The notes: generated from the letters alone by a model not told the origin. Shown: positions 21,535 to 57,482, counted from the stretch's first letter. The stretch is 64,000 nucleotides of DNA from Acutalibacteraceae bacterium (GCA_963610315.1 CAVDMV010000003.1:39146-103145); one strand, 5' to 3'. Program-made: numbers and translations.

Positions 21535-21560
21535 AAAAGAGAGCTAAGACTCTCTCTTTA
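21535..21560. terminator. bidirectional terminator between maa and gpsA
   Basis: AAGAGAGctaagactCTCTCTT hairpin flanked by an A-run and a T-run. Confidence 0.5.
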
Positions 21561-26018: not shown

Positions 26019-26720
26019 TTAACGATATCTAATCACTGCTTTAGAAGAAATAGAACCATTATTTTTTAAGATGTTAAAGACGATTTGATAATCATCTTCT
26101 TGATAGATAGTAGTTATCTCTTCATCTTCAATAACTTCAGAAATAAAATTAATTTCAAATTCATAAATATCTAAAGAAAGATAATATTCACTCTTTAATG
26201 CATTTAAATAATATCGAACATAACTAACATTATTTAAATGATGTGAATAATCAATATCACTTGAATAGACTTTATGAATTAATTCATTTTGTCTTTCAAT
26301 TTGAGGAATACGAGAATAAATTCTAATTTTTGGAAGTAAACTATCTTCTTTTAAAGAGAGAAATTCTAAAGAAACAGATTCTCTAGTAACATAATTAATT
26401 CCACATATCTCTGTAAACGAAGTAACTACTTCTTCATCATTTAATATAACATTAGTTTCTAAAATAAATGACATGAGATTAACTTTAACTAAATGTACTT
26501 TAAAATCTAAGATATCATTTAATTTAGGCATCTTCTCTATCACAAGTTTATTTCTTAATACTACTAAAATTATGTTATATTGAGGCTTTAAATATTCATT
26601 ATTTAAATGATGTTCTTCTAAATATTCAGTCGTTACATCTTCAATTAAAGAACTTAAAGAGATGAGATTTAATTTAAAAGAAGCATCAACTTCAGAATAT
26701 CTTACTTTAATCTTTTCCAT
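26019..26720 (-). CDS. acyl-ACP thioesterase (FatA-like, double hotdog)
   Basis: N-terminal KVRYSEVD pattern typical of acyl-ACP thioesterases; about 235 aa; start at MEKIK after GGAGG. Confidence 0.65.
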   Translation of the reverse strand: MEKIKVRYSEVDASFKLNLISLSSLIEDVTTEYLEEHHLNNEYLKPQYNIILVVLRNKLVIEKMPKLNDILDFKVHLVKVNLMSFILETNVILNDEEVVTSFTEICGINYVTRESVSLEFLSLKEDSLLPKIRIYSRIPQIERQNELIHKVYSSDIDYSHHLNNVSYVRYYLNALKSEYYLSLDIYEFEINFISEVIEDEEITTIYQEDDYQIVFNILKNNGSISSKAVIRYR

Positions 26721-27423
26721 TAATACCTCCAACTAAACTCTTCTTAATATTAATTTCATTTGAATTAATAATATGTTTTTCATTGTTATTACCTATCACA
26801 ACTAAATAGCCTTCTTTAGTAAAATCAATTACTTTATAAAGATTACCTTCATGAATAATTTCTCTATTCATAATGATATTGTTATTGCGATAAATAACCA
26901 TTAATTCATCAATATTCTTATTTAATAAGTAATCAAATTCAATTAGAACTTCATCTAACAAAGTTAATTTACTAATATTAATAAATTCATTAATTCCAGT
27001 TGCATTAAATTCTTTATTAGCTTTTAAATTGATTCCAATACCGAGAACGATATATTCTAGTTCACTTCCTAAATAAGAAGATTCAGCAAGAATCCCACAT
27101 ATTTTTTGGTCATCTACGTATATATCATTAGGCCATTTAATAAGTGCGTTAATACCATGTTTTCTTAAAACATTCATAATAACTAAAGAAGAAATAATTT
27201 CATAACGAGCGTCTTCTTTAAAAATAAATGAAAATGGTAAGCAATTAGATGAATCCCAAGTATGAGTCATTCTTCCTTTTCCTGCAGTTTGATTATCAGT
27301 ATAAAGAACACTCCTAGAGGTTAACTCAGAGGAGTGTTCTTTTAAATACGTATTTGTAGAATTAACTTCATCGATATAATAAAGATCAAAAGAAGCGACT
27401 TTTTTCTTAAATACGATATCCAT
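26707..27423 (-). CDS. birA: biotin-[acetyl-CoA-carboxylase] ligase, catalytic-only (no HTH domain)
   Basis: QTAGKGRMTHTW motif matches the BirA GRGRRGR biotin-binding loop; 238 aa. Confidence 0.75.
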   Translation of the reverse strand: MDIVFKKKVASFDLYYIDEVNSTNTYLKEHSSELTSRSVLYTDNQTAGKGRMTHTWDSSNCLPFSFIFKEDARYEIISSLVIMNVLRKHGINALIKWPNDIYVDDQKICGILAESSYLGSELEYIVLGIGINLKANKEFNATGINEFINISKLTLLDEVLIEFDYLLNKNIDELMVIYRNNNIIMNREIIHEGNLYKVIDFTKEGYLVVIGNNNEKHIINSNEINIKKSLVGGINGKD

Positions 27424-27424
27424 C

Positions 27425-28330
27425 TTATTTGCCTAATTTTGAAACTATATCTAAATAGCCATTGTAGTCAGAGACATTATAAATAGTCGCGGTAGGACTA
27501 ATCTTTCTAATAAAGCCTGTTAAAGCTTTGCCAGGACCGATTTCAACAAATGTATCAACACCTTGTTCAAGAAGATATTTAACTGAATCTTCAAAATAAA
27601 CGCTGTGACAGATTTGATCTTTTAAAATGTCATTTAATGGACGAGTTTCTTCTTTACCTGATACGTTATAAACAATTCTATAAGTAGGAGTAGCAGGAAC
27701 AAAACGATCTAAAACTTCTTTTAATTCGATTGAAGCATTATTTAATAATGATGAATGGAAAGCACCTGAAACATTTAATGGAATCGCTCTCCTAGCTTTT
27801 GCTTCTAAAAGGAGTTCACAAGCTTTATCAACTGCTTCATTAGTACCAGTAATAACAATTTGTCCTGGACAGTTATAGTTTGCAATTTCTACTACACCAG
27901 TATCAACTTTCTTTAAAGTTTCTAAGATAGTATTTCGATCTAAACCGATAATAGCGGCCATCTTTGTTGTTCCTAAAGGTAAAGCATTTTGCATAATTCT
28001 ACCTCTATTAGAAATAATTTCGATGGCATCTTCAATCTTCCAAGCATTCGCAAAAGCTAAAGCACTATATTCACCTAAAGAAAGTCCGCAGGCAAATTCA
28101 GGAACAATTCCTTTTTCTTCTAATGCCTTTGCAATTGCAAAAGAAGTAAGTAACATTGCTTTTTGAGCGTAAGCAGTTTGATTTAATAATTCATTTTCGT
28201 TGAAACATAAGTCTTTAATTTCAGGGAAAGCATCATAAATCTTTTTTACTAAATCTAAATTTTCATAAAAGTCTTTACCCATTCCAATATATTGGGCGCC
28301 TTGACCTGCAAAACAAAATGCAATTTTCAT
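27425..28330 (-). CDS. fabD: malonyl-CoA:ACP transacylase
   Basis: AGQGAQ and GLSLGEYSA active-site motifs; 301 aa. Confidence 0.9.
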   Translation of the reverse strand: MKIAFCFAGQGAQYIGMGKDFYENLDLVKKIYDAFPEIKDLCFNENELLNQTAYAQKAMLLTSFAIAKALEEKGIVPEFACGLSLGEYSALAFANAWKIEDAIEIISNRGRIMQNALPLGTTKMAAIIGLDRNTILETLKKVDTGVVEIANYNCPGQIVITGTNEAVDKACELLLEAKARRAIPLNVSGAFHSSLLNNASIELKEVLDRFVPATPTYRIVYNVSGKEETRPLNDILKDQICHSVYFEDSVKYLLEQGVDTFVEIGPGKALTGFIRKISPTATIYNVSDYNGYLDIVSKLGK

Positions 28331-28342
28331 AAGTCAACCTTT

Positions 28343-29257
28343 CTAACCGATATTACGGTATTTGTTAAATCTGTTATTTAATAATTCGTCTTTACTTAAT
28401 GCAGTTAATTCATCAAGTTTTGCGACGAGTTTTTCTTTAATTTGATTACCATATTCTTTAGAAATATAAGTAACACCTCCAAGAGGTTCTTTAATTACTT
28501 CATCGATAATTTTAAGTTCTAATAAATCCTTACTAGTCATCTTCATAATTTCGCATACATCTTCAACTTTAACGCTGTTTTTAAATAAAATTGAAGCAAA
28601 TCCTTCAGGTGAAAGAACTGAATATATCGCGTTTTCAAACATGTAAATATAATCTGAAACAGTGAGAGCTAACGCGCCTCCTGATCCTCCTTCAGATAGA
28701 ACAACTGCGATAACTGGTACTTTTAATGAAGCAAATTCCATGAGGTTATTTGCAATCGCGCGAGCTTGGCCTCTTTCTTCTGCCCCTTTTCCTGGATATG
28801 CGCCAGAAGTATCAACAATAGTAATAATAGGGCGATTAAATTTTTCTGCTTGATGCGCGAGTCTTAAAGTTTTTCTAAAACCTTCTGGAGAAGTCATACC
28901 AAAGTTTCTTTTAATATTTTCTTTAGTATTTGTTCCTTTAGCTTCAGCTAGAACTGTAACAGGATATTTACCTAGATAACCAACACCAGCAATAATTGCT
29001 GCATCATCACCATAATATTGATCACCGTGTAATTCATAAAAATCATCAATTAAAGCATTAATTAAAGCTTTCGCTTTAACTCTTTTTTCACTACGAGCGA
29101 TATTTACTCTATCATAAGCACTTAAAGAAGAATAAGTTTCAATTAATAAATTCTTTAATTCTTGCTTTAATTCTTCATATTCTTTATCTTGTGGATCAAG
29201 GTTAACAATTTGCTCTTTTAATTGAGCTATTTTTAATTCATTCTCTTCAAGTATCAT
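28343..29257 (-). CDS. accA: acetyl-CoA carboxylase carboxyltransferase alpha subunit
   Basis: Crotonase-fold CT domain; 304 aa; gene order accD-accA. Confidence 0.9.
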   Translation of the reverse strand: MILEENELKIAQLKEQIVNLDPQDKEYEELKQELKNLLIETYSSLSAYDRVNIARSEKRVKAKALINALIDDFYELHGDQYYGDDAAIIAGVGYLGKYPVTVLAEAKGTNTKENIKRNFGMTSPEGFRKTLRLAHQAEKFNRPIITIVDTSGAYPGKGAEERGQARAIANNLMEFASLKVPVIAVVLSEGGSGGALALTVSDYIYMFENAIYSVLSPEGFASILFKNSVKVEDVCEIMKMTSKDLLELKIIDEVIKEPLGGVTYISKEYGNQIKEKLVAKLDELTALSKDELLNNRFNKYRNIG

Positions 29258-29258
29258 A

Positions 29259-30134
29259 TTATCTATAATTATGAAGTTTTAATAGCTTATAAAGCGTAAC
29301 CTTCATATCCTTTCTTTCAACTATATTATCAATATAACCTTTATCTAAAAGGAATTCTGATGTTTGGAAATCTTTAGGAAGAACTTCTTTAATTGTTGAT
29401 TCAATAACTCTTCTTCCAGCAAAACCAATTAAAGTTTTAGGTTCAGCAAGAGTAATATCGGCAAGAGAAGCAAAAGACGCGCTTACTCCGCCGGTAGTAG
29501 GATCAGTTAAGACTGCAATATAAAGTTCTTTTTCTCTTAATTTACCAACTGCTTGGCTAGTTTTAGCCATTTGGAATAAAGAGATAATCCCTTCTTGCAT
29601 TCTTGCTCCTCCAGAACAAGTAAATAAAATTAAAGGTAAGTGTTCTTTAAGCGCTTTTTCACACATTAATGTAACTTTTTCGCCGCAGACAGAGCCCATA
29701 CTTCCCATCATAAAGAAACTATCCATAACGCCAACTAAGCAAGAGATACCGTTAATTTTACCTTTGACGCAGACAATTGATTCATCAATTTCTGAAGTTT
29801 CTTTAGCCTTAGACAATTTTTCTTCATAAGTAGGGAAATCTAAATGCTTTTCTTCAAGATTAGAAAATATTTCTTCATAACCTTCATCCATAACTTGTTT
29901 TAAGCGTTCTTTAGCGTGTAAACGCGCATGATAACCGCAGTTAGGACATACATATAAAGCATCTTGATATGCTTCAGAAAGTAAAGTTTTTTGACAAGAT
30001 GGGCATTTAACCATTAATCCATCTGGAACTTTAATTGGAGTAGTTTTTTCATCACGTTTTCTAAATTGAAGATCCGCTAGAACGGAATTAAATTCTTTAA
30101 TTTCTTCTTTTCTTTTATCGAATATATCTGGCAT
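29259..30134 (-). CDS. accD: acetyl-CoA carboxylase carboxyltransferase beta subunit
   Basis: N-terminal zinc finger CPSC...CPNCGYH; CT domain; 291 aa. Confidence 0.9.
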   Translation of the reverse strand: MPDIFDKRKEEIKEFNSVLADLQFRKRDEKTTPIKVPDGLMVKCPSCQKTLLSEAYQDALYVCPNCGYHARLHAKERLKQVMDEGYEEIFSNLEEKHLDFPTYEEKLSKAKETSEIDESIVCVKGKINGISCLVGVMDSFFMMGSMGSVCGEKVTLMCEKALKEHLPLILFTCSGGARMQEGIISLFQMAKTSQAVGKLREKELYIAVLTDPTTGGVSASFASLADITLAEPKTLIGFAGRRVIESTIKEVLPKDFQTSEFLLDKGYIDNIVERKDMKVTLYKLLKLHNYR

Positions 30135-31482
30135 TTTGTTCTAGCTCCTTTATCGTTTCATCAACAAAGCCAGTATTAAAGTTTCCTAAAATATACTTTG
30201 GATGATGCATAATCATATAATGGAATTCAGTTGTAGTTGGTACTCCATCAATTAATAATTCTTCTAACGCGACTCTCATTTTTCTAATTGCTTCAAGACG
30301 GTTTTTACCTAATACAACTAATTTTAAAATCATTGAGTCGTAATAAGGAGGAATGACGTATCCTGGGAAAACATGAGTATCTACTCTTACACCATTTCCA
30401 CCAGGTAAATGTAAGAAATTAATTTTACCTGCTTGAGGTCTAAAATCATTTGATACATCTTCAGCATTAATTCTACATTCAATCGCGAAACCATTGAGGT
30501 GAATATCTTCTTGTTTATAAGGAAGTTTCATACCTGCCGCAATCTTAATCATTAATTTAATAATATCTACGCCAGTTACCATTTCTGTAACTGAATGTTC
30601 TACTTGAACTCGAGTATTCATTTCGATGAAATAGAAATTTTCTTTGTCATCAACTAAGAATTCAATAGTACCGACTGAATCATAATTAACAAATTCAACT
30701 GCTTTTAAAGCATTTTCATATAATTTATTCTTTAATTTTTGTGAAATAGATTGGCATGGAGCTTCTTCAAGCATCTTTTGTTTTCTTCTTTGCATTGAGC
30801 AATTTCTTTCGAAAAGATGAATGTAATGGCCGAACTTATCACCAACAACTTGAACTTCGACATGCTTTGGATTTTGTACTAATTTTTCAATATATAATTC
30901 ATCGTTTGCGAAGAATTTCTTTGCTTCTTCTTTAGCTTCTTTATACATATCCGCGAATTTAGCTTCGGATTCGACCATTCGAATACCTTTTCCTCCTCCG
31001 CCGGCACTTGCTTTAATTAATACTGGGAAGCCAATTTCTTTTGCGATGGCTAACCCTTCATCTAACTTAACTGCTTTATAAGAGCCTGGAACAATTTGAA
31101 CACCAGCTTGACGCATTGATTTAATTGCTTCAGATTTATTACCCATTAATTCCATGACTTCTGGACGAGGTCCAATCCAAGTGATACCACATTTTTCAAC
31201 CATTTTGGCAAATAATGGGTTTTCGCTTAAAAAGCCAAAACCAGGATGAATCGCATCACATCCTGTTACACATGCTGCTGAAAGAATTCTTTCCATGTTT
31301 AAATATGAATTGGTAGAATTAGCTTCACCAATACATATTGCTTCATCCGCGATTTTAACATGTAAAGAAGATTTATCCGCGCTTGAATAAATCGCGACTG
31401 TCGCAATTCCCATTTCTTTACAAGCACGAATAATTCTAACTGCAATTTCTCCTCTATTTGCGATTAATACTTTCTTAAACAT
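30115..31482 (-). CDS. accC: biotin carboxylase
   Basis: ATP-grasp; MFKKVLIANRGEIAVRIIRACKEMGI N-terminus near-identical to AccC; 455 aa. Confidence 0.93.
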   Translation of the reverse strand: MFKKVLIANRGEIAVRIIRACKEMGIATVAIYSSADKSSLHVKIADEAICIGEANSTNSYLNMERILSAACVTGCDAIHPGFGFLSENPLFAKMVEKCGITWIGPRPEVMELMGNKSEAIKSMRQAGVQIVPGSYKAVKLDEGLAIAKEIGFPVLIKASAGGGGKGIRMVESEAKFADMYKEAKEEAKKFFANDELYIEKLVQNPKHVEVQVVGDKFGHYIHLFERNCSMQRRKQKMLEEAPCQSISQKLKNKLYENALKAVEFVNYDSVGTIEFLVDDKENFYFIEMNTRVQVEHSVTEMVTGVDIIKLMIKIAAGMKLPYKQEDIHLNGFAIECRINAEDVSNDFRPQAGKINFLHLPGGNGVRVDTHVFPGYVIPPYYDSMILKLVVLGKNRLEAIRKMRVALEELLIDGVPTTTEFHYMIMHHPKYILGNFNTGFVDETIKELEQNARYIR

Positions 31483-31484
31483 AA

Positions 31485-31919
31485 TTAATCACCTATTAAG
31501 AATAATTTTTGATCAAATTCAATTACTCCACCTTCACTTGCATAAATTTCTTTAACAGTTCCGTCTTTTGGTGCAGTAATTTCATTCATAACTTTCATTG
31601 CTTCAATGATACAAAGTTTATCACCTTTTTTAACTTTAGAACCAACTTCAACAAATGGTTTAGCATCTGGATATTGAGCTTGGTGATAAGTACCAACTAA
31701 TGGTGATTTAACAATGTCTTTTTCATTGATAACTTCTTCTTCAGAAGTTGAAGGAGTTACACTTGAAGAATGTTCATTAGGAACTACAAATCCTACTTGA
31801 TTTTCACTCTTTGTTAATTTGATTTTCATATCATCAACTTCAATATCTAAAGATGTAATATTTGCTTTTTCAAACATCTTAACAATCTTTTCAATTTCTT
31901 CAATTTTCATATTAAGCAT
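31485..31919 (-). CDS. accB: biotin carboxyl carrier protein
   Basis: Biotinylation motif EAMKVMN; 144 aa. Confidence 0.88.
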   Translation of the reverse strand: MLNMKIEEIEKIVKMFEKANITSLDIEVDDMKIKLTKSENQVGFVVPNEHSSSVTPSTSEEEVINEKDIVKSPLVGTYHQAQYPDAKPFVEVGSKVKKGDKLCIIEAMKVMNEITAPKDGTVKEIYASEGGVIEFDQKLFLIGD

Positions 31920-32148
31920 TTAACTCCTTTTCTTTTCTTGTAACTAATTTAACTACATCATCAACCGTGATTAATTGTTCCATTTCTTCATATTCGATTT
32001 GAATGGAGAATGCAGTTTCAAGTTCAAGAATCATTTCAACTGCATAAAGGCTATCAATGCCTAAATCTTTTAATTTCGCATCTTTCGTGATTTTTTCTTC
32101 ATCAACATTCGCGCATTCAATTAATAATTGTTTAATTTTTTCAAACAT
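31912..32148 (-). CDS. acyl carrier protein (copy 1)
   Basis: 78 aa, acidic, phosphopantetheine site GIDSL. Confidence 0.8.
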   Translation of the reverse strand: MFEKIKQLLIECANVDEEKITKDAKLKDLGIDSLYAVEMILELETAFSIQIEYEEMEQLITVDDVVKLVTRKEKELNA

Positions 32149-32172: not shown

Positions 32173-32913
32173 TTATTTTTTGCCTTTTTCTCTTTCATTA
32201 GTCCAAAAGTTATTTAAGAAAACTTTATAAGCACTAGTAGTAAAAGGTGGTTTTAATAATTTAATTTTGGTTTCTTCACTTAAAGAACCATTTTCGATAA
32301 ATTCTTGACCAGCGAGAATAAACTTTTCTAAGAATTTATCAATTTTATTTTGATTATTTAATTCGACTAAAGTCTTCATTTGAGGAACTAAAATCGCTAA
32401 ATAATTATTTTGACCGCAGATACAATCATATTGTTTTAATAAAGACGTATAAGCTAAATCAGTTTCAGTGTACGCACAAGTAGAAATAACGATAAATTTT
32501 CTATTTGGACGAGGATTTCTAATACCGTGGAAAGACTTTCCATCGCGAGGAGCGATTTGTCCTTCGTAAGTACACATCATCGATAAAAGTCGATCAGTAA
32601 GTACCTTATTAATTCCAGGCATTGAGAAGAAATATAAAGGATAAGAATTAATAACGATATCCGCGTTATCTAATTTTTCTTTAACAGTATTTACATCATC
32701 ATTTTTAATGACGCATTCTCCTGCCGTTCTTCCCCAGCAAGATAAGCAACCTAAACAAGGGGTAATTTTTAAATCAGATACGTTAATAATTTCTATATCT
32801 AAATCATTATTTACATTTAATCCTTTTAAGAAAGCATTAGTTACTACCATTGTAGAACTTCTTTCTTTTTTAGGACTACCATTTAAGACGACAACTTTTT
32901 TCTTAGTTTCCAT
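32173..32913 (-). CDS. iron-sulfur flavoprotein-like NAD(P)H-dependent FMN reductase (flavodoxin fold)
   Basis: VVVLNGSPKK flavodoxin-like N-terminus; compact Cys motif CLGCLSCWGRTAGEC (CX2CX2CX7C) as in Isf proteins; 246 aa; embedded in the FAS operon. Confidence 0.6.
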   Translation of the reverse strand: METKKKVVVLNGSPKKERSSTMVVTNAFLKGLNVNNDLDIEIINVSDLKITPCLGCLSCWGRTAGECVIKNDDVNTVKEKLDNADIVINSYPLYFFSMPGINKVLTDRLLSMMCTYEGQIAPRDGKSFHGIRNPRPNRKFIVISTCAYTETDLAYTSLLKQYDCICGQNNYLAILVPQMKTLVELNNQNKIDKFLEKFILAGQEFIENGSLSEETKIKLLKPPFTTSAYKVFLNNFWTNEREKGKK

Positions 32914-33373
32914 AGATTTGTTCTTTTTTAACAGCAGTAAATGTCATTGTTCCTTTTGAATAGATGACATCATTTACTTTAACAACTGCATCAAAAGTTG
33001 TTAATGGTCCCATTACCTTAGATTTTTTTACATTAATAATTAATGTATCACCAGGAATAACAGGTTTAATAAATTTGAAATTGTCTACTTTTAATAATAC
33101 GTAAATAAGATTTGCATCAGAACCATCAGATTCAATTACGAGTGAACATAATTGAGCACATGATTCAATAATTAATACTCCAGGCATGATTGGATTATCA
33201 GGGAAATGACCCATAAAATAAGGTTCATTTACTGAAACGTTCTTTAATCCAGTCGCTTCAACATTTGGAGTAAGTTCTAAGACCTTTTCAATCATTTGGA
33301 AAGGAGGTCTTTGTTTAATTCTTTTATTTATTTCATTAATGTTCATCATATTATAAAGATAATCCTCCATCAA
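32903..33373 (-). CDS. fabZ: 3-hydroxyacyl-ACP dehydratase
   Basis: Hotdog fold with HFPDNPIMPGVL motif; 156 aa. Confidence 0.85.
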   Translation of the reverse strand: MMEDYLYNMMNINEINKRIKQRPPFQMIEKVLELTPNVEATGLKNVSVNEPYFMGHFPDNPIMPGVLIIESCAQLCSLVIESDGSDANLIYVLLKVDNFKFIKPVIPGDTLIINVKKSKVMGPLTTFDAVVKVNDVIYSKGTMTFTAVKKEQIYGN

Positions 33374-34082
33374 TTGTAATTACTTGTCCAGTAATGTAGC
33401 TTGCTTCATCACTAGCTAAGAAAGAAACTAACGCCGCGATATCTTCAACAACACCTAATCTATGAAGAGGAATGTTCTTTAAATATTCTTCTTTTTTATC
33501 TTCTGGGATATGATCTAACATTTCTGTTTGGATAAATCCAGGAGCGACAGCATTAACTCTAATTCCATAAGGAGAAAGTTCTTTCGCTAAAGTTTGAGTC
33601 ATTGAGTTAACTGCACCTTTAGTTGATGAATATACGCTTTGTCCAGGTAAAGCAAATTTACCTGAGACAGAAGACATATTGATGATGACACCTTTTTTCT
33701 TACGAAGCATTTTTAAAGCTGCTTGTTGAGCACAATAGAAATATCCTTTAACATTTAAATCATAACATGCATCAAGATTTTCTTTTGTCATCATGAGTAA
33801 TAATTCATCTCTAACGATACCAGCATTATTGACTAAAACATCAATTTGTCCGTATGTTTTAGCGATTTCTTTCATCATTTTGCTCGCTTCTTCAAATTTA
33901 GAAACATCAGCTTTATAGATAATTCCATCTCCTCCATTAGCCTTAATTTCATCTAATGTCTTAAGAGCGGATTCATCGCTTCTAGAATAATTAACAACAA
34001 CAAAATAGCCATCCTTAGCAAGTCTAATTGCGCATCCTTTACCGATGCCCTTACTTGCGCCTGTAACAATTGCAACTTTCAT
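33351..34082 (-). CDS. fabG: 3-oxoacyl-ACP reductase (SDR)
   Basis: TGASKGIG cofactor motif, YSSTK catalytic tetrad; 243 aa. Confidence 0.88.
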   Translation of the reverse strand: MKVAIVTGASKGIGKGCAIRLAKDGYFVVVNYSRSDESALKTLDEIKANGGDGIIYKADVSKFEEASKMMKEIAKTYGQIDVLVNNAGIVRDELLLMMTKENLDACYDLNVKGYFYCAQQAALKMLRKKKGVIINMSSVSGKFALPGQSVYSSTKGAVNSMTQTLAKELSPYGIRVNAVAPGFIQTEMLDHIPEDKKEEYLKNIPLHRLGVVEDIAALVSFLASDEASYITGQVITIDGGLSL

Positions 34083-34096
34083 AAAATTCTCCTTTT

Positions 34097-36508
34097 TTAT
34101 TTAGATAAGATAACTGCAGTATATGAACCACCAGATCCATATGCAGTAACTAAGATATGAGATAATCCTTCAGAAGAAAGAGTTTTCTTAGTCATTTTTC
34201 CATTTTCATTTACATAAGCAAAATCATCATGGTCGATTGTATTAGATAATAATAATGATGCTTGAACAACGTTTAACGCTGCAGAAGCTGCTCTACCTTC
34301 ACCAGTTCTAGCTTTTGTTGAAACTACTGGAGTAGTAAAGTTTTCACCAAATACACGTTTATATGAAGAAATTTCTTCATTATCAATAACTTCACATCCA
34401 TTACCGAAACCAACGATAGCATCAATATCACTTACTTTTAATCCTGCGTGATCAAGAGCTTGTTTAATTGCTTCATCAAGAGCTTCGCTAGAATTGGATA
34501 ATGTACCAAAGCTAACATCTTTATGTGTCATACCATAGCCTGAAACATAAGCATATTTTTTCGCACCACGTTTATCTGCATTAGTTTCGCTTTCTAAGAC
34601 GATAGTAATGCCGCCGTCACTAAGGACGAAGCCTTTATTATGAGAATATGGTTCAACATAGCTATCTGCGACATAGCCAAGTGAAGTATATAATTCAGAT
34701 GTAACATTAATATTTTCATCACTACCAGAAGCTAAAATAATATCTTCTTTTCCTTGTTCAATGATGTTCATACCATAAGCAATACTTGCTAAACCTGATT
34801 GAGCACCGTTTGTGATTGTAACGTTATAACCTTTAATCTTTGATTGGATTGATAAGTAACCACCTGCTGCATTATAAACAGTATTTGGGAAGCTAAATGC
34901 GCTGCCATTTGCGTTACCTTTTTCGTAAATATTTTCTTCGAATTCACAACCCATACCAAGAGCGCCTTCAGAAGTACCAACAACAATACCAATACGTGTT
35001 GCATTTTCATCAGTAACTTCTAAGTTAGCATCTTTTAATGCATAAATTCCTGAAGCAACTTCAATAGAAGAAATAACATCGAGTTTTCTATGGAATGACA
35101 TTGGAACACCAACTGGTGCGAATAAGTTAGGAATTGATGTAGCATCAACTTTACGATCTAATACTGATTTGACGTTACCTTCTTTAACAGTTTCATTTGC
35201 GTTAACCTTTGCAATATAGTTTTCAGTACCATTACCTAATGGAGAAACAATACCAAAACCTGTAACGACTACTTTTTCTTTCTTTTCTGGTAAAGTTACA
35301 TTACCAGCATTTTTACTGAAGATAATTGAAGCGTTATTACCACCGAAAGCAAATGAGTTAGACATAACATTTTCTAATTCTTTTTCATGTGCTTTATTTG
35401 GAATAAAGTCAATTTTACCTGCTTTTTCTTTTAATGTGACTAAATCTTCATCACTATAGCCAAGAGTTGCAGGAACTGTATTAGTTGTTAATGCTTTGAT
35501 TGAGAAAACAGCTTCGATCGCGCCAGCTGCACCTAAGCAATGGCCAACCATTGCTTTAGTTGATGAAACACTTAAATTATCTGTTTCTGGATCAAAAATT
35601 GTATGTAATGATAAGAATTCAGCATTATCGTTTTTACCAGTACCTGTACCGTGAGCGTTAATATAACCAATTTCGTTAGCTTTAACACCTGAAGTTTTCA
35701 TCGCCCAACGAATTGCGTTCATTTGTCCTTCACCATCTTCTCTAGGAGCTGTAATGTGATGAGCGTCACTTGATACACCTGAGCCTAAGACTTCACAATA
35801 AATCTTTGCTTTTCTCTTTAATGCATGTTCATAAGATTCAACAACAACAATACCTGAACCTTCACCAAGAGTAATACCTTTACAATGGTTAAATGGTGAA
35901 CATGGATTTGAATCTAATGCATGAAGAGCTAAGAAGCCTGAATAAGGAACGCTAGCAAAAGCATCCGCGCCACCTGCGATAACAATATCAGCTTTACCTG
36001 CTCTAATGAGGTCACAAGCATATGAGATAGAAATAGTACCAGCTGCACATGCGTTTGCAATATTAGTTACAACACCACCTGCGTGGACGTAGCCAGCTAC
36101 TTGAGAAGCAATCGCGCTAATAGGCATTTGCTTAATATCTTTTTTATCTTTGCCGTGTTGATAATAATGTTCAATAGAAACAACGCCGCCAACACATGAA
36201 CCGATGATAACGCTAACTCTAGGATCATCATTAAAATCTTTTAATCCTGCATCAGACATCGCTTCTTTAGTAGCTTTAATACATAATTTAGAAACTCTAT
36301 CCATATATTCTTTTGTTTCAACATCTTTTAAATCATCTTTAACTTCTGCCGCTAATGAAGCATAGCAATCTTTTGTATCAACACTAGTTGTAGTAGCGAT
36401 ACCTGAGACTGATTTTAATGCATTTGACCAACATTCATCAACGCTACTACCAATTGCACTGATTAAACCTAAACCAGTAACAACACAACGTAAATTATTT
36501 TCTGTCAT
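34097..36508 (-). CDS. fused beta-ketoacyl-ACP synthase II (active) plus catalytically inactive KS-like C-terminal domain (CLF-like), 803 aa
   Basis: N-domain has Cys (NACAAG), HGTGT and GHCLGAAG motifs; C-domain starts VVVTGFGIVSPLG but has NGAQSG at the Cys position and lacks both catalytic His. Confidence 0.8.
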   Translation of the reverse strand: MTENNLRCVVTGLGLISAIGSSVDECWSNALKSVSGIATTTSVDTKDCYASLAAEVKDDLKDVETKEYMDRVSKLCIKATKEAMSDAGLKDFNDDPRVSVIIGSCVGGVVSIEHYYQHGKDKKDIKQMPISAIASQVAGYVHAGGVVTNIANACAAGTISISYACDLIRAGKADIVIAGGADAFASVPYSGFLALHALDSNPCSPFNHCKGITLGEGSGIVVVESYEHALKRKAKIYCEVLGSGVSSDAHHITAPREDGEGQMNAIRWAMKTSGVKANEIGYINAHGTGTGKNDNAEFLSLHTIFDPETDNLSVSSTKAMVGHCLGAAGAIEAVFSIKALTTNTVPATLGYSDEDLVTLKEKAGKIDFIPNKAHEKELENVMSNSFAFGGNNASIIFSKNAGNVTLPEKKEKVVVTGFGIVSPLGNGTENYIAKVNANETVKEGNVKSVLDRKVDATSIPNLFAPVGVPMSFHRKLDVISSIEVASGIYALKDANLEVTDENATRIGIVVGTSEGALGMGCEFEENIYEKGNANGSAFSFPNTVYNAAGGYLSIQSKIKGYNVTITNGAQSGLASIAYGMNIIEQGKEDIILASGSDENINVTSELYTSLGYVADSYVEPYSHNKGFVLSDGGITIVLESETNADKRGAKKYAYVSGYGMTHKDVSFGTLSNSSEALDEAIKQALDHAGLKVSDIDAIVGFGNGCEVIDNEEISSYKRVFGENFTTPVVSTKARTGEGRAASAALNVVQASLLLSNTIDHDDFAYVNENGKMTKKTLSSEGLSHILVTAYGSGGSYTAVILSK

Positions 36509-36615: not shown

Positions 36616-36861
36616 CTACTTATTTGCGATAATATATGCTGCAAGAGTATCAATGCTTCTGAAGTGTTCTCTAGCAACACCAGTCATTGATAAACCAAAT
36701 TCATCATCAATAAATGAGATAATTTCAATTGAGTCGATTGAGTCTAAACCAATTGAAGTACCTTCAAATAATGGAGTATCGAAATTTAATACACTTGGTT
36801 CAACTCCTAAGTTTTCACAAATGAAATCTTTTAATTTTTGTTTTACTTCTACTTCGTTCAT
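36616..36861 (-). CDS. acyl carrier protein (copy 2)
   Basis: 81 aa; phosphopantetheine attachment site GLDSIDSIE. Confidence 0.7.
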   Translation of the reverse strand: MNEVEVKQKLKDFICENLGVEPSVLNFDTPLFEGTSIGLDSIDSIEIISFIDDEFGLSMTGVAREHFRSIDTLAAYIIANK

Positions 36862-37021: not shown

Positions 37022-37333
37022 TTAAGAAATTATTACAATGCTTGTTACTAAGTCTCCTTCATGAGAAATAGAGATACTTATTTCAGGATGATTTAAAACA
37101 TAAGGCTGACCAGAAGGATGTTTTAAAATTGAATATTCAAGATAAAGAGGATCTTGAGTCGCTTTAAAAATTGCTTCTTTAGACGCCCAACGAACAGCTA
37201 AAAAAGTGGACTTAGAATCTTCATTTAATTCATTAAATTCTTCTAACTCCACTTTCGTTAGTATTCGATTTATAAAATTTTCTTTTTTATTTTCAAATCT
37301 AGATATTCTTGTTAAATCAATTCCTACTTGCAT
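37022..37333 (-). CDS. acpS: holo-ACP synthase (4'-phosphopantetheinyl transferase)
   Basis: MQVGIDLTRISRF N-terminus and KEAIFKA motif typical of AcpS; 103 aa. Confidence 0.8.
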   Translation of the reverse strand: MQVGIDLTRISRFENKKENFINRILTKVELEEFNELNEDSKSTFLAVRWASKEAIFKATQDPLYLEYSILKHPSGQPYVLNHPEISISISHEGDLVTSIVIIS

Positions 37334-37375: not shown

Positions 37376-39034
37376 TTATCTAGTTGAATTAACAAATGAG
37401 TCGATATCAACTTTTGTTGTATCGATAGTTGATATTTGTTTTCTTAGTTTTAATACATAAGAAGGTGAAACAGATAATTCATCAATACCTAATGAAACAA
37501 AGAAAGGTAATAATTTTTCATCACGTGCTAATTCACCACATATACCAACAGGAATATTTTTCTTATGGCCATTTTCGATTGTTAATTTGATAAGTCTAAG
37601 AATAGCCTTATGATGTGGATTAAATGTTTTATCTAATAATGGATTAACGCGGTCGATTGCTAAAGTATATTGAGATAAATCATTCGTGCCGATTGAGAAG
37701 AAGTCGACGTGTTCTGCTAGTACATCTGACATAATTGCCGCGGCAGGAGTTTCAATCATAATACCGATTTTCATATCAGGATTAAACTTTTCACCACGAG
37801 AAGTAAGGTTATTTTTCGCTAAAGCACACATTTCTTTAACAAATTCGACTTCGCTTAATGAGATAATCATCGGAATCATAATTGCTAAATTACCATATGC
37901 TGATGCACGATATAAGGCAGTTAATTGGTCTAAGAACATCGCAGGACGATCTTTACAAATTCTAATTGAACGATATCCTAAAGCTGGATTTTCTTCTTCA
38001 GGTAATTCGAAATAATCAACTTTTTTATCCGCGCCGATATCTAAAGTTCTAATAATAACTTCTTTCCCCTTCATTGCTTCAACAACTTTTTTATAATGAA
38101 CAAATTGTTCTTCTTCAGTTGGGTAAGTTTTACTATCTAAATAGATGAATTCAGATCTAAATAAACCGATACCTTCTCCATCATTTTTAATAACATTATC
38201 AACTTCATAACTAGAAGCAATATTAGAATAAATCTTTAATTTTTTACCATCTAATGTTGTCGTTTCTTTGCCTCTTAGAAAGGAAAGTTCTTTTATATCA
38301 TTAAGATAAGATTCTTTGATTTTTGAATATTTAGTAATATCTTTTGAAGTTGGATCAATAATTAGTTTTCCTTTAAGGCCATCAATAATCGCAAATTTGC
38401 CGTTTAAAGAAGCGTCAACATTAAAATCATCAATTGCACAGATAGAAGGAATTTCAAGCATTCTAGTAAGAATGGAAACGTGAGAATTAATGCTTCCTTT
38501 AACTAAAATTAAGCCGATGAGAAGATTCTTATCAAACTTCATAAGTTCACTTGAAGGTAAGTCATCACAGATGATAATTGAAGGTTCTTTTAATAAAGTT
38601 AAATCTTCTTTTTTAGTTAAGACATCAATAATTTTATTACCGACTTCAAGAACATCTCTCGCTCTTTCTTTCATGTAAGCATCGTCCATAGTTTCAAACA
38701 TACTGGATAATTGTTTACTTGCTTCTTTAACCGCCGATTCTGCCGTTAATTTATTGTTTATACCTTCTTTAACTAAATCTTCAAAATCGAGATCTTCCGC
38801 CATAAGTTTATGGGTAAGGAAGAGTTGAGCCTCTTCCTCCCCTAAACGAATTAATGTGTCTTGATAAAGTTTTTCAAATGAAACAATGGTTTTTGCACGA
38901 GCTTCAATGAAACGTTCAGTTTCTTTTTCTTCACCTAAGAATTCATTTTTAGTTTCAGTTTTTATATCTTGGTAAACAACTAGTTTTCCAAGTGCGTATC
39001 CATCAAAGATACGTTTAGATGAATATTCTTTCAT
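37376..39034 (-). CDS. ptsI: phosphoenolpyruvate-protein phosphotransferase (PTS enzyme I)
   Basis: 552 aa; PEP-utilizing enzyme domains including the phospho-His region GSINSHVSIL. Confidence 0.88.
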   Translation of the reverse strand: MKEYSSKRIFDGYALGKLVVYQDIKTETKNEFLGEEKETERFIEARAKTIVSFEKLYQDTLIRLGEEEAQLFLTHKLMAEDLDFEDLVKEGINNKLTAESAVKEASKQLSSMFETMDDAYMKERARDVLEVGNKIIDVLTKKEDLTLLKEPSIIICDDLPSSELMKFDKNLLIGLILVKGSINSHVSILTRMLEIPSICAIDDFNVDASLNGKFAIIDGLKGKLIIDPTSKDITKYSKIKESYLNDIKELSFLRGKETTTLDGKKLKIYSNIASSYEVDNVIKNDGEGIGLFRSEFIYLDSKTYPTEEEQFVHYKKVVEAMKGKEVIIRTLDIGADKKVDYFELPEEENPALGYRSIRICKDRPAMFLDQLTALYRASAYGNLAIMIPMIISLSEVEFVKEMCALAKNNLTSRGEKFNPDMKIGIMIETPAAAIMSDVLAEHVDFFSIGTNDLSQYTLAIDRVNPLLDKTFNPHHKAILRLIKLTIENGHKKNIPVGICGELARDEKLLPFFVSLGIDELSVSPSYVLKLRKQISTIDTTKVDIDSFVNSTR

Positions 39035-39036
39035 AA

Positions 39037-39294
39037 TTATAAATTAGCTTCGAATACTTCTTGAAGAGCTTTTGCTGCTTCTTCTTCATCCGCACCTTCA
39101 ACTTCAATTAAAACTTCTTCATTAGATTTTACGCATAATCCCATTACACCAAAGATTCTCTTTAAATCAGCTTTTTTACCTTTGTTTGTAATAGAAACTG
39201 TAGAAGTATATTTTTTTGCTTCTGCAACGACAATTCCTGCAGGACGTGCATGAATGCCTTCTTTATCTTTAATTACATATGTGAATGATTTCAT
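39037..39294 (-). CDS. ptsH: phosphocarrier protein HPr
   Basis: 85 aa; active-site GIHARPAG (His15). Confidence 0.9.
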   Translation of the reverse strand: MKSFTYVIKDKEGIHARPAGIVVAEAKKYTSTVSITNKGKKADLKRIFGVMGLCVKSNEEVLIEVEGADEEEAAKALQEVFEANL

Positions 39295-39296
39295 AT

Positions 39297-41300
39297 TTAT
39301 TTTCTCTTTCCGATTCTAAGGCCTTTGAACTTACCAAGTTCTGGGTTTTCGACATCTTTCTTTAATAAGCTTAACATAAATGCTGTGATAATTGTACCAA
39401 TCGCTAAAGCAAGGAGATAGAAATACCATTTACCAACAACTGCGAATACGAAGATACCACCATGAGGTGCCATTAATGTACAACCGAATACAACACTTAA
39501 TAAACCTGCAACTGCTGCACCAACAACAGATGAAGAAATAACTCTTAATGGATCTTTTGCTGCATATGGAATTGCTCCTTCAGTAATAAAGCCAGCACCC
39601 ATAACATAGTTAACCATTGCTTCTTTTCTTTCTTCTTTTGTCCATTTTTGTGGGAATAATGTCGCGGATAATGCAATTCCTAGAGGAGGAACCATACCGC
39701 CAATCATAACTGCCGCCATCATTTGATAACAATAAGCTTGATATGCTGCATCAGTAGAACCAGCTGCTGCAGTTAACATTGCTGTACCGAAGACATATGC
39801 CGCTTTATTAATAGGGCCACCCATATCGATAGCCATCATTGCTGCAAGTAACGCACCAAGTAAAATTGTTAAATTGTTTTTACCTAACCAGTTTAAAGCA
39901 TTAGAGATACCAATGTTAATATATGTAAATGGAGTATTAATAACAAACATTACTAATCCAATAAGCGCAACACCAAAGACTGGATAAATTAACATAGGTT
40001 TAATACCATCAAGCGCTTTTGGCATTTTTTCTGTACATTTTTCTAATAACTTAATGATATAACCTGCAATAAACCCTGCCGCGACTGCTCCTAAGAAACC
40101 AGCAGTTGATCCTGTATCATTACCGGAAATTTGTACTCCGATTGAAAATGAAGATACGGTAGCAAGAGATCCTCCAACAAAGCCAATCGCTAAACCTGGT
40201 CTACCAGCAATAGAATAAGCGATAAATGCCGCTAAAACTGGTAACATGAAGTTAAATGCAACTCCTCCAGTAGTTTTTAAGAACCAAGATACTGGAGTAC
40301 CTGTACCGAAATTACCATCAGTAGGAACACCAGCGAAAGTATCAATCATAAATGCTAAAGCAATTAAGATACCACCACCGATAACGAATGGTAACATGTG
40401 AGAAACACCATTCATTAAGTGTTTATAAATTTGATGCCAAATAGAACCATCTGACTTAGTATCTTTTTTAGTTTGCTTATTATCTGAATGATATACAGGA
40501 GCTTCGTTATTAACAGCTTTTTTAATTAATTCTTTAGGTTCATGGATACCTTTACTTACGGTAGAAATAACGACGTGTTTTCCATCAAATCTATCCATTT
40601 CAACATTGACGTCTGCCGCGACTACAATGCCCTTTGCATGAGCGATTTCTTCATCTGTTAATAAGTTTTTAACGCCACCTGAACCATTAGTTTCAACTTT
40701 ACATGAATAGCCAAGTTCTTCAGCCGCTTTCTTAATTGATTCTTCTGCCATATATGTATGAGCGATACCATTAGGGCAACCTGTAACACCTAAGATTTCA
40801 GGATAATCGACACTAGGAGAAGCATTTTGTTCTTCTTCAATTCTATCTTTTTCCGCTTCATCAATGACTTTTAAGAATTCTTCTTTAGATGATGCGTTTA
40901 CTAAATTATTTTTAAAATTTTCATCCATTAATAAGTTAGATAATCTCGCAAGAACTTCTAAGTGAACATTATCTTCACTATTAGGCGCCGCGATTAAGAA
41001 TAATAAATTAACTTTTTCACCATCTAATGAATCATAATCAACACCATCTTTTAATACCATAGCCGCTAATGCAGGTTTAGTGACAACATCAGATTTACAA
41101 TGAGGAATTGCAATTCCTTCTCCGATACCAGTTGTTGATTCTTCTTCACGATGATAAACACCAGCTTTGTAAGTTTCTACATCTTTAATGACACCACTTT
41201 TTGAAATTAATGAGACAGCTTTTTCGATAACGTCATGTTTATCAGTAGCTGAAGCATTAATATCAATTGTTTCACTTGATAATAAATCTGTAATTTTCAT
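39297..41300 (-). CDS. fruA: PTS fructose-specific EIIABC
   Basis: 667 aa; N-terminal IIA(Fru) domain, IIB, C-terminal multi-TM IIC; adjacent fruK/fruR. Confidence 0.88.
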   Translation of the reverse strand: MKITDLLSSETIDINASATDKHDVIEKAVSLISKSGVIKDVETYKAGVYHREEESTTGIGEGIAIPHCKSDVVTKPALAAMVLKDGVDYDSLDGEKVNLLFLIAAPNSEDNVHLEVLARLSNLLMDENFKNNLVNASSKEEFLKVIDEAEKDRIEEEQNASPSVDYPEILGVTGCPNGIAHTYMAEESIKKAAEELGYSCKVETNGSGGVKNLLTDEEIAHAKGIVVAADVNVEMDRFDGKHVVISTVSKGIHEPKELIKKAVNNEAPVYHSDNKQTKKDTKSDGSIWHQIYKHLMNGVSHMLPFVIGGGILIALAFMIDTFAGVPTDGNFGTGTPVSWFLKTTGGVAFNFMLPVLAAFIAYSIAGRPGLAIGFVGGSLATVSSFSIGVQISGNDTGSTAGFLGAVAAGFIAGYIIKLLEKCTEKMPKALDGIKPMLIYPVFGVALIGLVMFVINTPFTYINIGISNALNWLGKNNLTILLGALLAAMMAIDMGGPINKAAYVFGTAMLTAAAGSTDAAYQAYCYQMMAAVMIGGMVPPLGIALSATLFPQKWTKEERKEAMVNYVMGAGFITEGAIPYAAKDPLRVISSSVVGAAVAGLLSVVFGCTLMAPHGGIFVFAVVGKWYFYLLALAIGTIITAFMLSLLKKDVENPELGKFKGLRIGKRK

Positions 41301-41312
41301 GTTACCCTCCTT

Positions 41313-42215
41313 CTATTTTATCAATTGTTCTAATTTTTCAACTTTTTCTAATGTGGCTAAATTTTCTGAAAAAGCTGAAGCACTTCCGCATGCAATTCCT
41401 CTCTTGAATGCTTTATATATATCATCGCTACGATAGTATTCATCAATAAATCCTGCAACTAATGAATCACCTGCGCCAACGGTGTTAATAACTTTTCCTT
41501 TTGGACAATCAGTTAATTTGTATTCTCCGTTACCTCTAACTAGTAATGCTCCGCTTCCACCAAGAGAAACGATGACATTTTGTGCTCCTAAAGAAATTAA
41601 TTTTTTTGCGTTTTCCACTAATTCTTCTTCATTACTAATTTTAACATTGAATAGTTCTTCTAATTCTTCCTTATTAGGTTTAACTAATACAGGATGATAT
41701 GGCAAAGTTTTAAGTAAGGTATCTTTTGTTGTATCAACAATTAATTGAACATTTTGATTTTTAATTCTTTCAAGAATTCTTTCATAAGTGTTGCTTGGTA
41801 AAGTATTTGGGATTGCTCCAGAAATTACTAAGACATCATTTGAAGTAAGATTAGTAAGTTTTTCAATTAATGTTTCAATATCTTGATCTTCAACTCTCGG
41901 TCCTTGACCATTGATTGCAGTTTCAACCATACCTTTTATTTTTACATTAATTCTAGTATTACCATTTAAATGAACGAAATCACTTTCAATATTATGTGCT
42001 TTCATTTCATCTTCGATATACTTACCAATAAAGCCTCCGACAAAACCCATCGCAACAGATTTTGTTCCTAAGTTTGATAAAACTAATGAAACGTTTATTC
42101 CTTTGCCACCAGGAAGCATTGTTTCCTTCTTAGTTCTATTAATTGCACCAACTTCTAGTTTGTCTAAATCAACAATATAGTCAAGTGCAGGAGAAAATGT
42201 AACTGTATATATCAT
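41313..42215 (-). CDS. fruK: 1-phosphofructokinase (pfkB family)
   Basis: Ribokinase-like fold with GGKGIN and GAGDS motifs; 300 aa. Confidence 0.88.
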   Translation of the reverse strand: MIYTVTFSPALDYIVDLDKLEVGAINRTKKETMLPGGKGINVSLVLSNLGTKSVAMGFVGGFIGKYIEDEMKAHNIESDFVHLNGNTRINVKIKGMVETAINGQGPRVEDQDIETLIEKLTNLTSNDVLVISGAIPNTLPSNTYERILERIKNQNVQLIVDTTKDTLLKTLPYHPVLVKPNKEELEELFNVKISNEEELVENAKKLISLGAQNVIVSLGGSGALLVRGNGEYKLTDCPKGKVINTVGAGDSLVAGFIDEYYRSDDIYKAFKRGIACGSASAFSENLATLEKVEKLEQLIK

Positions 42216-42965
42216 CTATTTATTCACCTCCAATACATTTTCTTTTTTATATTCTTTATTTTTAATTTTGTCTGTTATTAATGTTGCTTCGTTAAAGGAA
42301 GCAAATTTAACACCTTGTTCAAAACCTAATTTACTATTATCTGCGATTACATAAGCTTTAATACTTCTATTAAGGGCGGTCTTTTTAATCATTGCTTCTT
42401 CATAATCAGGAGTAGTATAACCTTGTGATAATGAAATAGCGTTCGCTCCAAAGAAGCCTATATCAAATGTAAATCTTTTAATCGTTTCTACTGGGAAAGA
42501 ACCAACAAATGCATCAGTTGATAATTTAATTTCTCCACCAGTAACATAAACTTTATATTTTCTTTTAGTTAGTTTTTGAGCGATAGTCATTGAGTTAGTA
42601 ACAAAGATGTTGCCACTTGATTTTATATAATCACATAAGCAAGAAGTTGTTGTTCCAGCATCTATATAAACTAATGTATTATCCTTAATTAAAGAAGCAG
42701 CGTATTGAGCGATTGAATTCTTTTCATCAACATGGAGTGAAGCTTTTTCATTCATATTTAACTCTTTTAATGAAGTTTTATTATTTTGAATAGATTTTGC
42801 TCCACCATGAAGTCTAATAATTTTACCTTCTTTTTCAAGATGAACTAAATCGCCGCGGATTGTTGATTCGCTAGAAGAAGTTTTTTTCATTAATTCATGT
42901 AACGATACATATTCTTTTTCATTAAGTAAATCAAGTATCATTTGTAATCTTAAATTTTTAAGCAC
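42216..42965 (-). CDS. fruR: DeoR-family transcriptional repressor of the fructose operon
   Basis: N-terminal DeoR HTH plus C-terminal sugar-phosphate sensor domain; 249 aa. Confidence 0.85.
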   Translation of the reverse strand: MLKNLRLQMILDLLNEKEYVSLHELMKKTSSSESTIRGDLVHLEKEGKIIRLHGGAKSIQNNKTSLKELNMNEKASLHVDEKNSIAQYAASLIKDNTLVYIDAGTTTSCLCDYIKSSGNIFVTNSMTIAQKLTKRKYKVYVTGGEIKLSTDAFVGSFPVETIKRFTFDIGFFGANAISLSQGYTTPDYEEAMIKKTALNRSIKAYVIADNSKLGFEQGVKFASFNEATLITDKIKNKEYKKENVLEVNK

Positions 42966-57332: not shown

Positions 57333-57482
57333 AACTTTCCTCCATTTCTCAAATATTATAAGAAGAAGTCGGTTAAAAAACAATAAATAAAAAATACTCT
57401 CTTATTATTTTAAAAAAATAATATATTTCATTTTATTTCTTAATATTATATAATTAGTTTGTATTTCCAAGGAGGATTAACT

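Follow-up and report, generated by a model that had tools for sequence, protein, structure and literature searches.

A stretch of 64,000 nucleotides from an Acutalibacteraceae bacterium (GCA_963610315.1, CAVDMV010000003.1:39146-103145), referred to here in its full length as the window, encodes on its minus strand an 803-residue protein in which a FabF-type ketosynthase (KS) with a complete catalytic centre is continued by a second KS that has lost its own. Fused and separate pairs of a KS and a chain-length factor (CLF) are already known, the former from PfaC and the latter from type II polyketide synthases (PKS) and, since 2026, from anammox ladderane clusters, as are tandem KS domains from prodiginine synthesis; what is new here is a free-standing FabF-FabF(dead) fusion that occupies the fabF slot of a primary type II fatty-acid synthesis (FAS II) operon in hundreds of species. 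We consider it probable that this protein is a covalent pseudo-heterodimeric ketosynthase, in which the dead half completes the interface and the acyl pocket of the live half, and which is primed by decarboxylation of malonyl-acyl carrier protein (malonyl-ACP).

The open reading frame (ORF) carries an AGGAG ribosome-binding site 7-8 nt 5' of its start and is organised as follows:

34097..36508, minus strand: KS-KS(dead) fusion gene, 803 codons plus stop, ATG start, unbroken ORF (ORF list and translation).
35297..36508, minus strand: N-terminal half, aa 1-404, active FabF-type β-ketoacyl-ACP synthase II (KAS II; TIGR03150 match).
35273..35311, minus strand: linker, aa 400-412, NAGNVTLPEKKEK, flanked by the FabF match, which ends at aa 399, and the second KS, which starts at aa 413.
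34097..35296, minus strand: C-terminal half, aa 405-803, dead FabF paralogue (aligned with both E. coli FabF and the N-terminal half).

A preliminary description of this DNA had placed a single 803-residue protein at the same coordinates, in agreement with the ORF list and the translation, but had left the strand unstated. Pfam recognises two copies each of ketoacyl-synt (E 1e-44) and Ketoacyl-synt_C (E 2e-50), so that the chain departs from the FabF norm of a single-domain homodimer subunit of ~410 residues. Database records name the protein 'beta-ketoacyl-ACP synthase family protein' and nothing more specific, and NCBIfam holds no model for the KS-KS(dead) architecture.

By sequence, the N-terminal half qualifies as a true KAS II of the FabF type. 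It scores 519.8 bits against the NCBIfam model TIGR03150 (fabF), a narrow margin over the cut-off of 493.75, with aa 7-397 covering positions 2-406 of the 407 in the model, and is 31-40% identical to solved FabFs in structural alignments. The motifs NACAAG (Cys154), HGTGT (His286), STK (Lys318) and GHCLGAAG (His323) are all present, together with the FAFGG gate (Phe388), and these five residues are invariant across 120 homologues, which bears out the full Cys-His-His set of a KAS II already ascribed to this half. Compared to E. coli FabF, two four-residue deletions fall into the helix-loop-helix and dimer-interface region (aa ~117-146). The codons in question are:

36047-36049, minus strand: Cys154, catalytic.
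35651-35653, minus strand: His286, catalytic.
35555-35557, minus strand: Lys318, catalytic.
35540-35542, minus strand: His323, catalytic.
35345-35347, minus strand: Phe388, gatekeeper, counterpart of FabF Phe400.

The C-terminal half begins with VVVTGFGIVSPLGNG at aa 413. It can be aligned along its entire length both to E. coli FabF (131 bits) and, at 25% identity, to its own N-terminal half (97 bits). A recent tandem duplication is not supported by these values; because the dead half is no closer to its own N-terminal half than to E. coli FabF, the duplication is old. The positions that matter for its chemistry, and its most conserved segment, are the following:

34802-34804, minus strand: codon of Ala569, at the position of the FabF catalytic Cys.
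34799-34801, minus strand: codon of Gln570, at Cys+1 (the Gln of NGAQSG).
34406-34408, minus strand: codon of Phe701, at the position of FabF His303.
34313-34315, minus strand: codon of Lys732, retained counterpart of FabF Lys335.
34298-34300, minus strand: codon of Glu737, at the position of FabF His340.
34292-34294, minus strand: codon of Arg739, invariant.
34817..34918, minus strand: most conserved block of the C-terminal half, aa 531-564, G-N-x-x-GSAFxFPNTVYNAAGGYLSI... (conservation count).

All three catalytic residues are thus replaced (Ala569, Phe701, Glu737), as the preliminary description had it, but the Gln of NGAQSG, which it had put at the Cys position, sits one residue further on. 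Among the 78 species-level genomes that carry the fusion as one continuous ORF, Glu737 and Arg739 are kept in every one (78/78 each), Phe701 in 77, Lys732 in 75 and Gln570 in 70, the last also in 116 of the 120 homologues, while the Cys-aligned position 569 varies between Ala, Ser, Asn, Pro and Phe. With a mean pairwise identity of 55%, against 72% for the N-terminal half in the same 78 species, the dead half evolves faster; despite its dead triad, 73 of its positions are at least 95% conserved, a pattern that clearly points to purifying selection. As many as 24 of these 73 lie in the 34 residues of aa 531-564, which align to residues ~125-160 of E. coli FabF, a helix-loop-helix. In FabF dimers this element forms the interface and covers the substrate pocket of the partner (bioRxiv 10.64898/2026.05.19.726425). 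The counterpart of the FabF pocket residue Ile108 is Glu514 in the dead half and is acidic in six of seven distant relatives, which argues that the pocket of the dead half itself is not in use. It appears, therefore, that the dead half has kept what a partner subunit contributes to the pocket of the other half, whereas its own pocket and chemistry have been lost. The N-terminal deletions, set against the full-length motif in the dead half, create an asymmetry that could block homodimerisation.

CLFs are likewise KS folds without the active-site Cys that pair with a live KS, and the dead half had been described as CLF-like. Searched against the PDB, the dead-half profile finds genuine FabF best (200 bits), followed by the chains of 9S5H (199 and 184 bits), compared to 131 bits for the actinorhodin KS-alpha; none of the CLF chains looked for (1TQY_B, 6KXD_B, 6RIW) is among the top 60 matches. 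On these grounds we rejected membership in the CLF clade. Nor does the dead half show the Cys-to-Gln exchange typical of aromatic-PKS CLFs, as its Gln occupies Cys+1. Because the profile fits FabF best, the dead half is to be regarded as a degenerate FabF paralogue that is CLF-like by analogy and not by descent. The earlier likening to a CLF therefore stands for the dead KS fold and for the best structural match, 6RIW, but not for clade membership by sequence.

The preliminary description had suggested a structure prediction, and the AlphaFold2 model of the whole chain (51-sequence alignment; pTM 0.92, pLDDT 88.3) is one compact body resembling a KS dimer folded from a single polypeptide, in which the relative placement of the two halves is modelled with confidence. 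In a Foldseek search of the PDB the first hit is 6RIW, the KS-CLF didomain of PfaC (E 8e-51; query-normalised TM 0.77; 17% identity), which alone matches the query from end to end; single FabF chains each span half of the query (TM 0.45). The fusion is thus predicted to be an intramolecular pseudo-dimer, and the dimer-like packing that would complete the likeness to a KS/CLF pair is part of this prediction.

The architecture is widespread. The identical protein is called on contigs from many independent assemblies (at least 25 contigs), and more than 120 homologue clusters of 790-830 residues align to it with 60-72% identity and 100% length coverage, the cluster members including Treponema rectale QOS39127.1. 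An exhaustive HMMER search with the dead half alone recovered 210 representative proteins at E < 1e-30; the best matches are nearly all two-KS proteins of ~800 residues with an intact Cys/His/Lys/His N-terminal half and a dead C-terminal half, and close relatives shorter than 600 residues are mostly fragments that still bear the tail of the N-terminal half. In a scan of one genome per species, at least 524 genomes were found to carry a relative, so that the fusion, previously called unusual, is not rare, and is unusual only in being unstudied. Our statements on loci and synteny rest on the best 80 species-level loci of these at least 524, with ±10 kb around each. The 80 are gut and rumen genomes labelled as Mollicutes, Anaeroplasma, Acholeplasmatales, Erysipelotrichaceae, Clostridia, Lachnospiraceae, Christensenellaceae and Treponema, and cultured examples among them are Lachnospira eligens BIOML-A1 and Eubacterium sp. 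AF22-9. Two metagenome-assembled genome (MAG) records bear the titles 'Azospirillum sp. CAG:239' and 'Desulfovibrio piger' (L007/L057), labels that look wrong for contigs of 30% GC and were not used; the former record is 98% identical to the window across the dead half, and we suspect bin contamination or mislabelling.

More remote fused relatives occur in other phyla. A profile search with high-GC dead halves returned mostly ordinary KS and CLF proteins and only two partial fused relatives, one of which (L087) has a fragmentary context. The other, a distant high-GC KS-KS(dead) fusion (P0447) in an Acidimicrobiales MAG (L088, 1-11944), adjoins a large non-ribosomal peptide synthetase (NRPS) and a type II thioesterase, along with a luciferase-like oxidoreductase and genes for an ABC exporter. 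Because this relative sits in an NRPS cluster of the lipopeptide type, the fused architecture reaches beyond the FAS module.

The fusion gene lies between an ACP gene and fabG, and its earlier assignment to the place of fabF in a fatty-acid operon is upheld. The operon runs, on the minus strand, in the order acpS, ACP1, KS-KS(dead), fabG, fabZ, a flavodoxin-fold protein, ACP2, accB, accC, accD, accA, fabD, birA, acyl-ACP thioesterase and a HAD phosphatase:

37022..37333, minus strand: acpS, holo-ACP synthase, 103 aa (Pfam ACPS, E 3.4e-15; TIGR00556 above cut-off).
36616..36861, minus strand: ACP1, 81 aa (PP-binding, E 1.5e-9; TIGR00517 31 bits, below cut-off).
33351..34082, minus strand: fabG, 3-oxoacyl-ACP reductase, 243 aa (TIGR01830 284.9 bits, just under 297.75; adh_short_C2, E 1e-67).
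32903..33373, minus strand: fabZ, 3-hydroxyacyl-ACP dehydratase (NF000582 132.7 bits, cut-off 113; synteny).
32173..32913, minus strand: flavodoxin-fold protein, 246 aa (Pfam FMN_red, Flavodoxin_2).
31912..32148, minus strand: ACP2, 78 aa (NF002150 63.6 bits; TIGR00517 57.3 bits).
28343..31919, minus strand: accB, accC, accD, accA, acetyl-CoA carboxylase (ACC; translations; Pfam of the identical genes in another assembly, L004: Biotin_lipoyl; Biotin_carb_N and Biotin_carb_C; Carboxyl_trans; ACCA).
27425..28330, minus strand: fabD, malonyl-CoA:ACP transacylase (TIGR00128 278.6 bits, cut-off 260.9).
26707-27423, minus strand: birA-type biotin ligase (TIGR00121 128.7 bits, cut-off 83.1).
26019-26732, minus strand: acyl-ACP thioesterase (N- and C-terminal Acyl-ACP_TE domains, Pfam).

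The order ACP - KS-KS(dead) - FabG - FabZ hardly varies across the 80 loci. In loci of the Mollicutes type, FabZ is followed by the flavoprotein, ACC and FabD, and in those of the Clostridia type by FabD, AccD, AccA and the flavoprotein, with a TetR regulator, a patatin-like protein, PlsC, PlsX, a thioesterase and TldD/PmbA as recurrent neighbours. The presence of ACC, FabD, BirA, AcpS and a thioesterase here, and of PlsX and PlsC in Clostridia, points to housekeeping membrane-lipid synthesis; plsX, plsY and plsC were not seen in the 64-kb window. ACP1, an atypical carrier protein with the motif LDSIDSIEI, is encoded right before the fusion in almost all of the 80 loci, the exceptions being loci cut at that end; the more canonical ACP2, between the flavoprotein and accB, is found in 29 of 86 loci, in operons of the Mollicutes type. 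A division of labour between the two is possible, for instance between priming and elongation or between lipid and another acyl product.

Beyond the operon, gpsA, encoding an NAD-dependent glycerol-3-phosphate dehydrogenase (21544-22548, minus strand), lies ~3.5 kb from its end and would fit a lipid-synthesis neighbourhood. Directly upstream of acpS and co-oriented with it is a fructose phosphotransferase system (PTS) operon (fruR, a DeoR-type regulator; fruK, 1-phosphofructokinase; fruA, EIIABC) with ptsH-ptsI (37376-42965, minus strand), an arrangement repeated in other assemblies of the same gene (L004-L006). Further away, at 52690-57383 on the minus strand, a 990-residue BcrAD_BadFG/DUF2229 'CoA-enzyme activase' is followed by a 426-residue ORF without a Pfam match and a 154-residue ORF; this set resembles an activator/dehydratase-type radical enzyme system and is unrelated to the FAS operon.

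No FabH homologue was found in the operon or in the window, where the best phmmer match to E. coli FabH has an E-value of 0.49, and Pfam scans of the remaining large ORFs of the window returned nothing related to KS, FabH or enoyl-ACP reductase (ENR); the fusion is the only thiolase-fold gene in the window. Within ±10 kb, FabH, FabI and a second KS are absent from all 80 loci. The absence of fabH from the cluster, noted before, is thereby corroborated, and the related claim that the fusion is the only condensing enzyme applies to the operon, to the window as a whole and, in 80 genomes, to the surrounding ±10 kb.

Based on these results, we propose that the fusion is the condensing enzyme of a FAS II module comprising ACP, FabG, FabZ, the flavodoxin-fold protein, FabD, ACC and acyl-ACP thioesterase, with no FabH encoded alongside, and that it would be the sole KS of the cell. 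The N-terminal half would carry out all Claisen condensations and would presumably be unable to homodimerise, or not need to. The C-terminal half would pack on it like the second subunit of a KS dimer and provide the partner-side helix-loop-helix that closes the acyl pocket of the live half, acting as an obligate structural and pocket-forming partner. The role of a chain-length factor would thus have been reached independently from FabF and fixed by fusion, and the pairing of a live with a dead half would leave one active site per polypeptide. Initiation would most likely start with the conversion of malonyl-ACP to acetyl-ACP by the live half, which would then load itself with the acetyl group and use another malonyl-ACP for the first condensation, the route taken by KS-CLF pairs and by the anammox FabF2/FabFmut heterodimer. 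FAS II priming without KAS III has precedents, among them P. aeruginosa FabY and MadA, a protein with GNAT and hot-dog domains. The malonyl-ACP decarboxylase MadA/YiiD is reported to prime FAS II without KAS III (PMC8666670), and the KAS I enzyme FabB to initiate fatty-acid synthesis in P. putida (PMC10869286). Closest to our case, anammox FabF2 and FabFmut are inactive separately, but as a heterodimer decarboxylate malonyl-ACP and form acetoacetyl-ACP (bioRxiv 10.64898/2026.05.19.726425).

Several points weigh against this proposal. A fabH gene may lie elsewhere in the carrier genomes, our search having covered the window and ±10 kb of the 80 loci. Clostridia-type loci have no accB and accC next to the module, so that part of the pathway is encoded elsewhere, and these carriers may have a second FAS locus. 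The pocket-shaping role of the dead half is argued from homology to FabF dimers, and the strict conservation of Gln570, Lys732, Glu737 and Arg739 seems to exceed the needs of a purely structural partner and may reflect a residual binding or catalytic role.

In a different view, the fusion only elongates, or serves a specialised lipid or polyene of the aryl-polyene or ishigamide type, and another part of the genome supplies an ordinary FabH, perhaps along with a housekeeping FabF. The make-up of ACP, KS/CLF, ketoreductase and dehydratase is indeed like that of highly reducing type II PKS clusters, the distant high-GC relative adjoins NRPS, thioesterase and ABC-exporter genes, ACP1 reaches only 31 bits against TIGR00517, accB and accC are missing from Clostridia-type loci, and the search for FabH and further KS genes spans ±10 kb. 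We nevertheless regard this view as rather unlikely: the operon with acpS, accABCD, fabD, birA and acyl-ACP thioesterase amounts to a complete primary FAS set, plsX and plsC flank the module in Clostridia, FabZ, FabD and the N-terminal half score at or above curated cut-offs for fatty-acid synthesis, and the module is conserved in no fewer than 524 species, some of them from Mollicutes-like lineages with small genomes. Moreover, fabH of Firmicutes normally lies inside the fab operon, yet is absent from all 80 loci.

The conserved residues of the dead half could also mean that it is itself a dedicated malonyl-ACP decarboxylase of the KSQ kind, which makes acetyl-ACP for the live half and replaces FabH catalytically. 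KSQ loading domains act as decarboxylases, as do FabF C163Q mutants, and the C163Q structures 2GFV and 9LPL are among the PDB matches to our model. A Gln stands next to the former Cys in 116 of 120 homologues and in 70 of 78 species, Lys732, Glu737 and Arg739 are invariant or nearly so, and the operon lacks FabH. This Gln, however, is out of register by one position, next to a Cys-aligned residue that varies, both His residues that drive decarboxylation are replaced (Phe701, Glu737), and the pocket carries an acidic residue at the Ile108 equivalent. In the anammox pair, decarboxylation is ascribed to the subunit with the intact triad (bioRxiv 10.64898/2026.05.19.726425). Taken together, these features make a catalytic dead half improbable.

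That the ORF is an assembly or frameshift join of two KS genes, a worry raised in the preliminary description, or a decaying pseudogene can be dismissed almost with certainty, as nothing was found in its favour and the same protein occurs on many independent contigs, the fused frame is conserved across species (more than 120 full-length clusters of 790-830 residues; 78 species with a continuous ORF), the C-terminal half has 73 positions conserved at 95% or more, and close relatives below 600 residues are mostly fragments.

A FAS operon of this kind would also be expected to encode an enoyl-ACP reductase. FabI, FabK, FabL and FabV were not found in the operon or the window by Pfam scans and phmmer, the only match to FabI being FabG itself. 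The flavodoxin-fold protein, annotated merely as 'flavodoxin family protein', belongs to the cluster in the majority of the 80 loci (also at L001 20226-20945 and L041 14996-15790), and because no other oxidoreductase without an assigned role is present in this cluster, which lacks FabI/K/L/V, we infer that it is a candidate for a new class of enoyl-ACP reductase. Its AlphaFold2 model (pLDDT 89) has a fold like that of FMN-dependent NADH azoreductases and quinone reductases, and the motif CxxCxxCx7C, present in 76 of 76 copies, may be the site of a 4Fe-4S cluster. A 2022 review of enoyl-ACP reductases mentions no flavodoxin-type and no Fe-S enzyme. Our literature search, from which subscription-only publications were excluded, found no paper on either the fusion or a flavodoxin-fold enoyl-ACP reductase.

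Among known systems, a close counterpart in layout is the PfaC KS-CLF didomain of polyunsaturated fatty acid (PUFA) synthase, which, like the fusion, joins a live KS to an inactive KS-like domain in one chain with pseudo-dimer packing. PfaC, however, is part of a multidomain megasynthase with dehydratase (DH) domains (KS-CLF-DH-DH, in the pfa cluster), whereas the fusion is free-standing among discrete FAS II genes, scores 92 bits against the NCBIfam PUFA model TIGR02813 (cut-off 1010) and is closest to FabF in both halves. The KS-alpha/CLF pairs of type II PKS (actinorhodin, 1TQY; ishigamide Iga11/Iga12, 6KXD) share the combination of a live KS with a partner lacking the triad; their CLF is believed to give the interfacial acyl tunnel its shape, and initiation proceeds through malonyl-ACP decarboxylation without KAS III. 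Yet these are two polypeptides in a polyketide context, and the fusion is one polypeptide in a fatty-acid context, with a dead half outside the CLF clade. The anammox amxFabF2/amxFabFmut pair (9S5H) is likewise a FabF-derived live/dead pair in a fatty-acid-type cluster (bioRxiv 10.64898/2026.05.19.726425). In amxFabFmut, Cys is changed to a small or aliphatic residue and His to Asn, Glu or Cys. Unlike the single-gene fusion, this pair is encoded by separate genes, in Planctomycetota, and is dedicated to ladderane lipids with canonical FabFs alongside; its 199 and 184 bits with the dead-half profile equal the scores of ordinary FabFs and do not imply shared ancestry with the fusion family. PigJ/RedX of prodiginine synthesis, a pathway of secondary metabolism, also have two KS-like domains per chain, one of them catalytic, but the domain order appears reversed, as the live N-terminal half of the fusion aligns to positions 508-755 of the PigJ model, the C-terminal KS of PigJ; against this model (NF053555) the fusion reaches 82.6 bits, far from the cut-off of 900. 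With canonical homodimeric FabF the live half shares Cys-His-His-Lys and the gatekeeper Phe, to which the fusion adds a dead paralogue. MadA/YiiD, P. putida FabB and P. aeruginosa FabY prime independently of FabH, but none of them is a live-dead KS fusion.

It is possible, and we put this forward tentatively, that hundreds of gut and rumen anaerobes, among them Mollicutes-like Bacilli, many Clostridia and Treponema, build the fatty acids of their membranes by an undescribed variant of FAS II, in which a fused live/dead FabF is responsible for elongation as well as for priming through decarboxylation of malonyl-ACP, FabH is dispensable, and a flavodoxin-fold, azoreductase/NQO-like enoyl-ACP reductase with a Cys4 motif, maybe an Fe-S protein, stands in for FabI/K/L/V. 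If the fusion is the sole condensing enzyme, it would represent a natural KS/CLF-type solution within primary fatty-acid synthesis and offer a clean system with one active site, in which to study the effect of a dead partner on FabF pocket geometry and the priming of FAS II without FabH. With the co-conserved flavodoxin-fold protein, a possible new class of enoyl-ACP reductase has a concrete candidate, and a dedicated family model for annotating the fusion protein would be justified. As the family is widely found among gut bacteria of humans and animals, Lachnospira eligens being one example, and its carriers there may lack the usual targets, these findings also bear on the spectrum of the 'narrow-spectrum' FabH, FabF, FabI and FabK inhibitors now in development.

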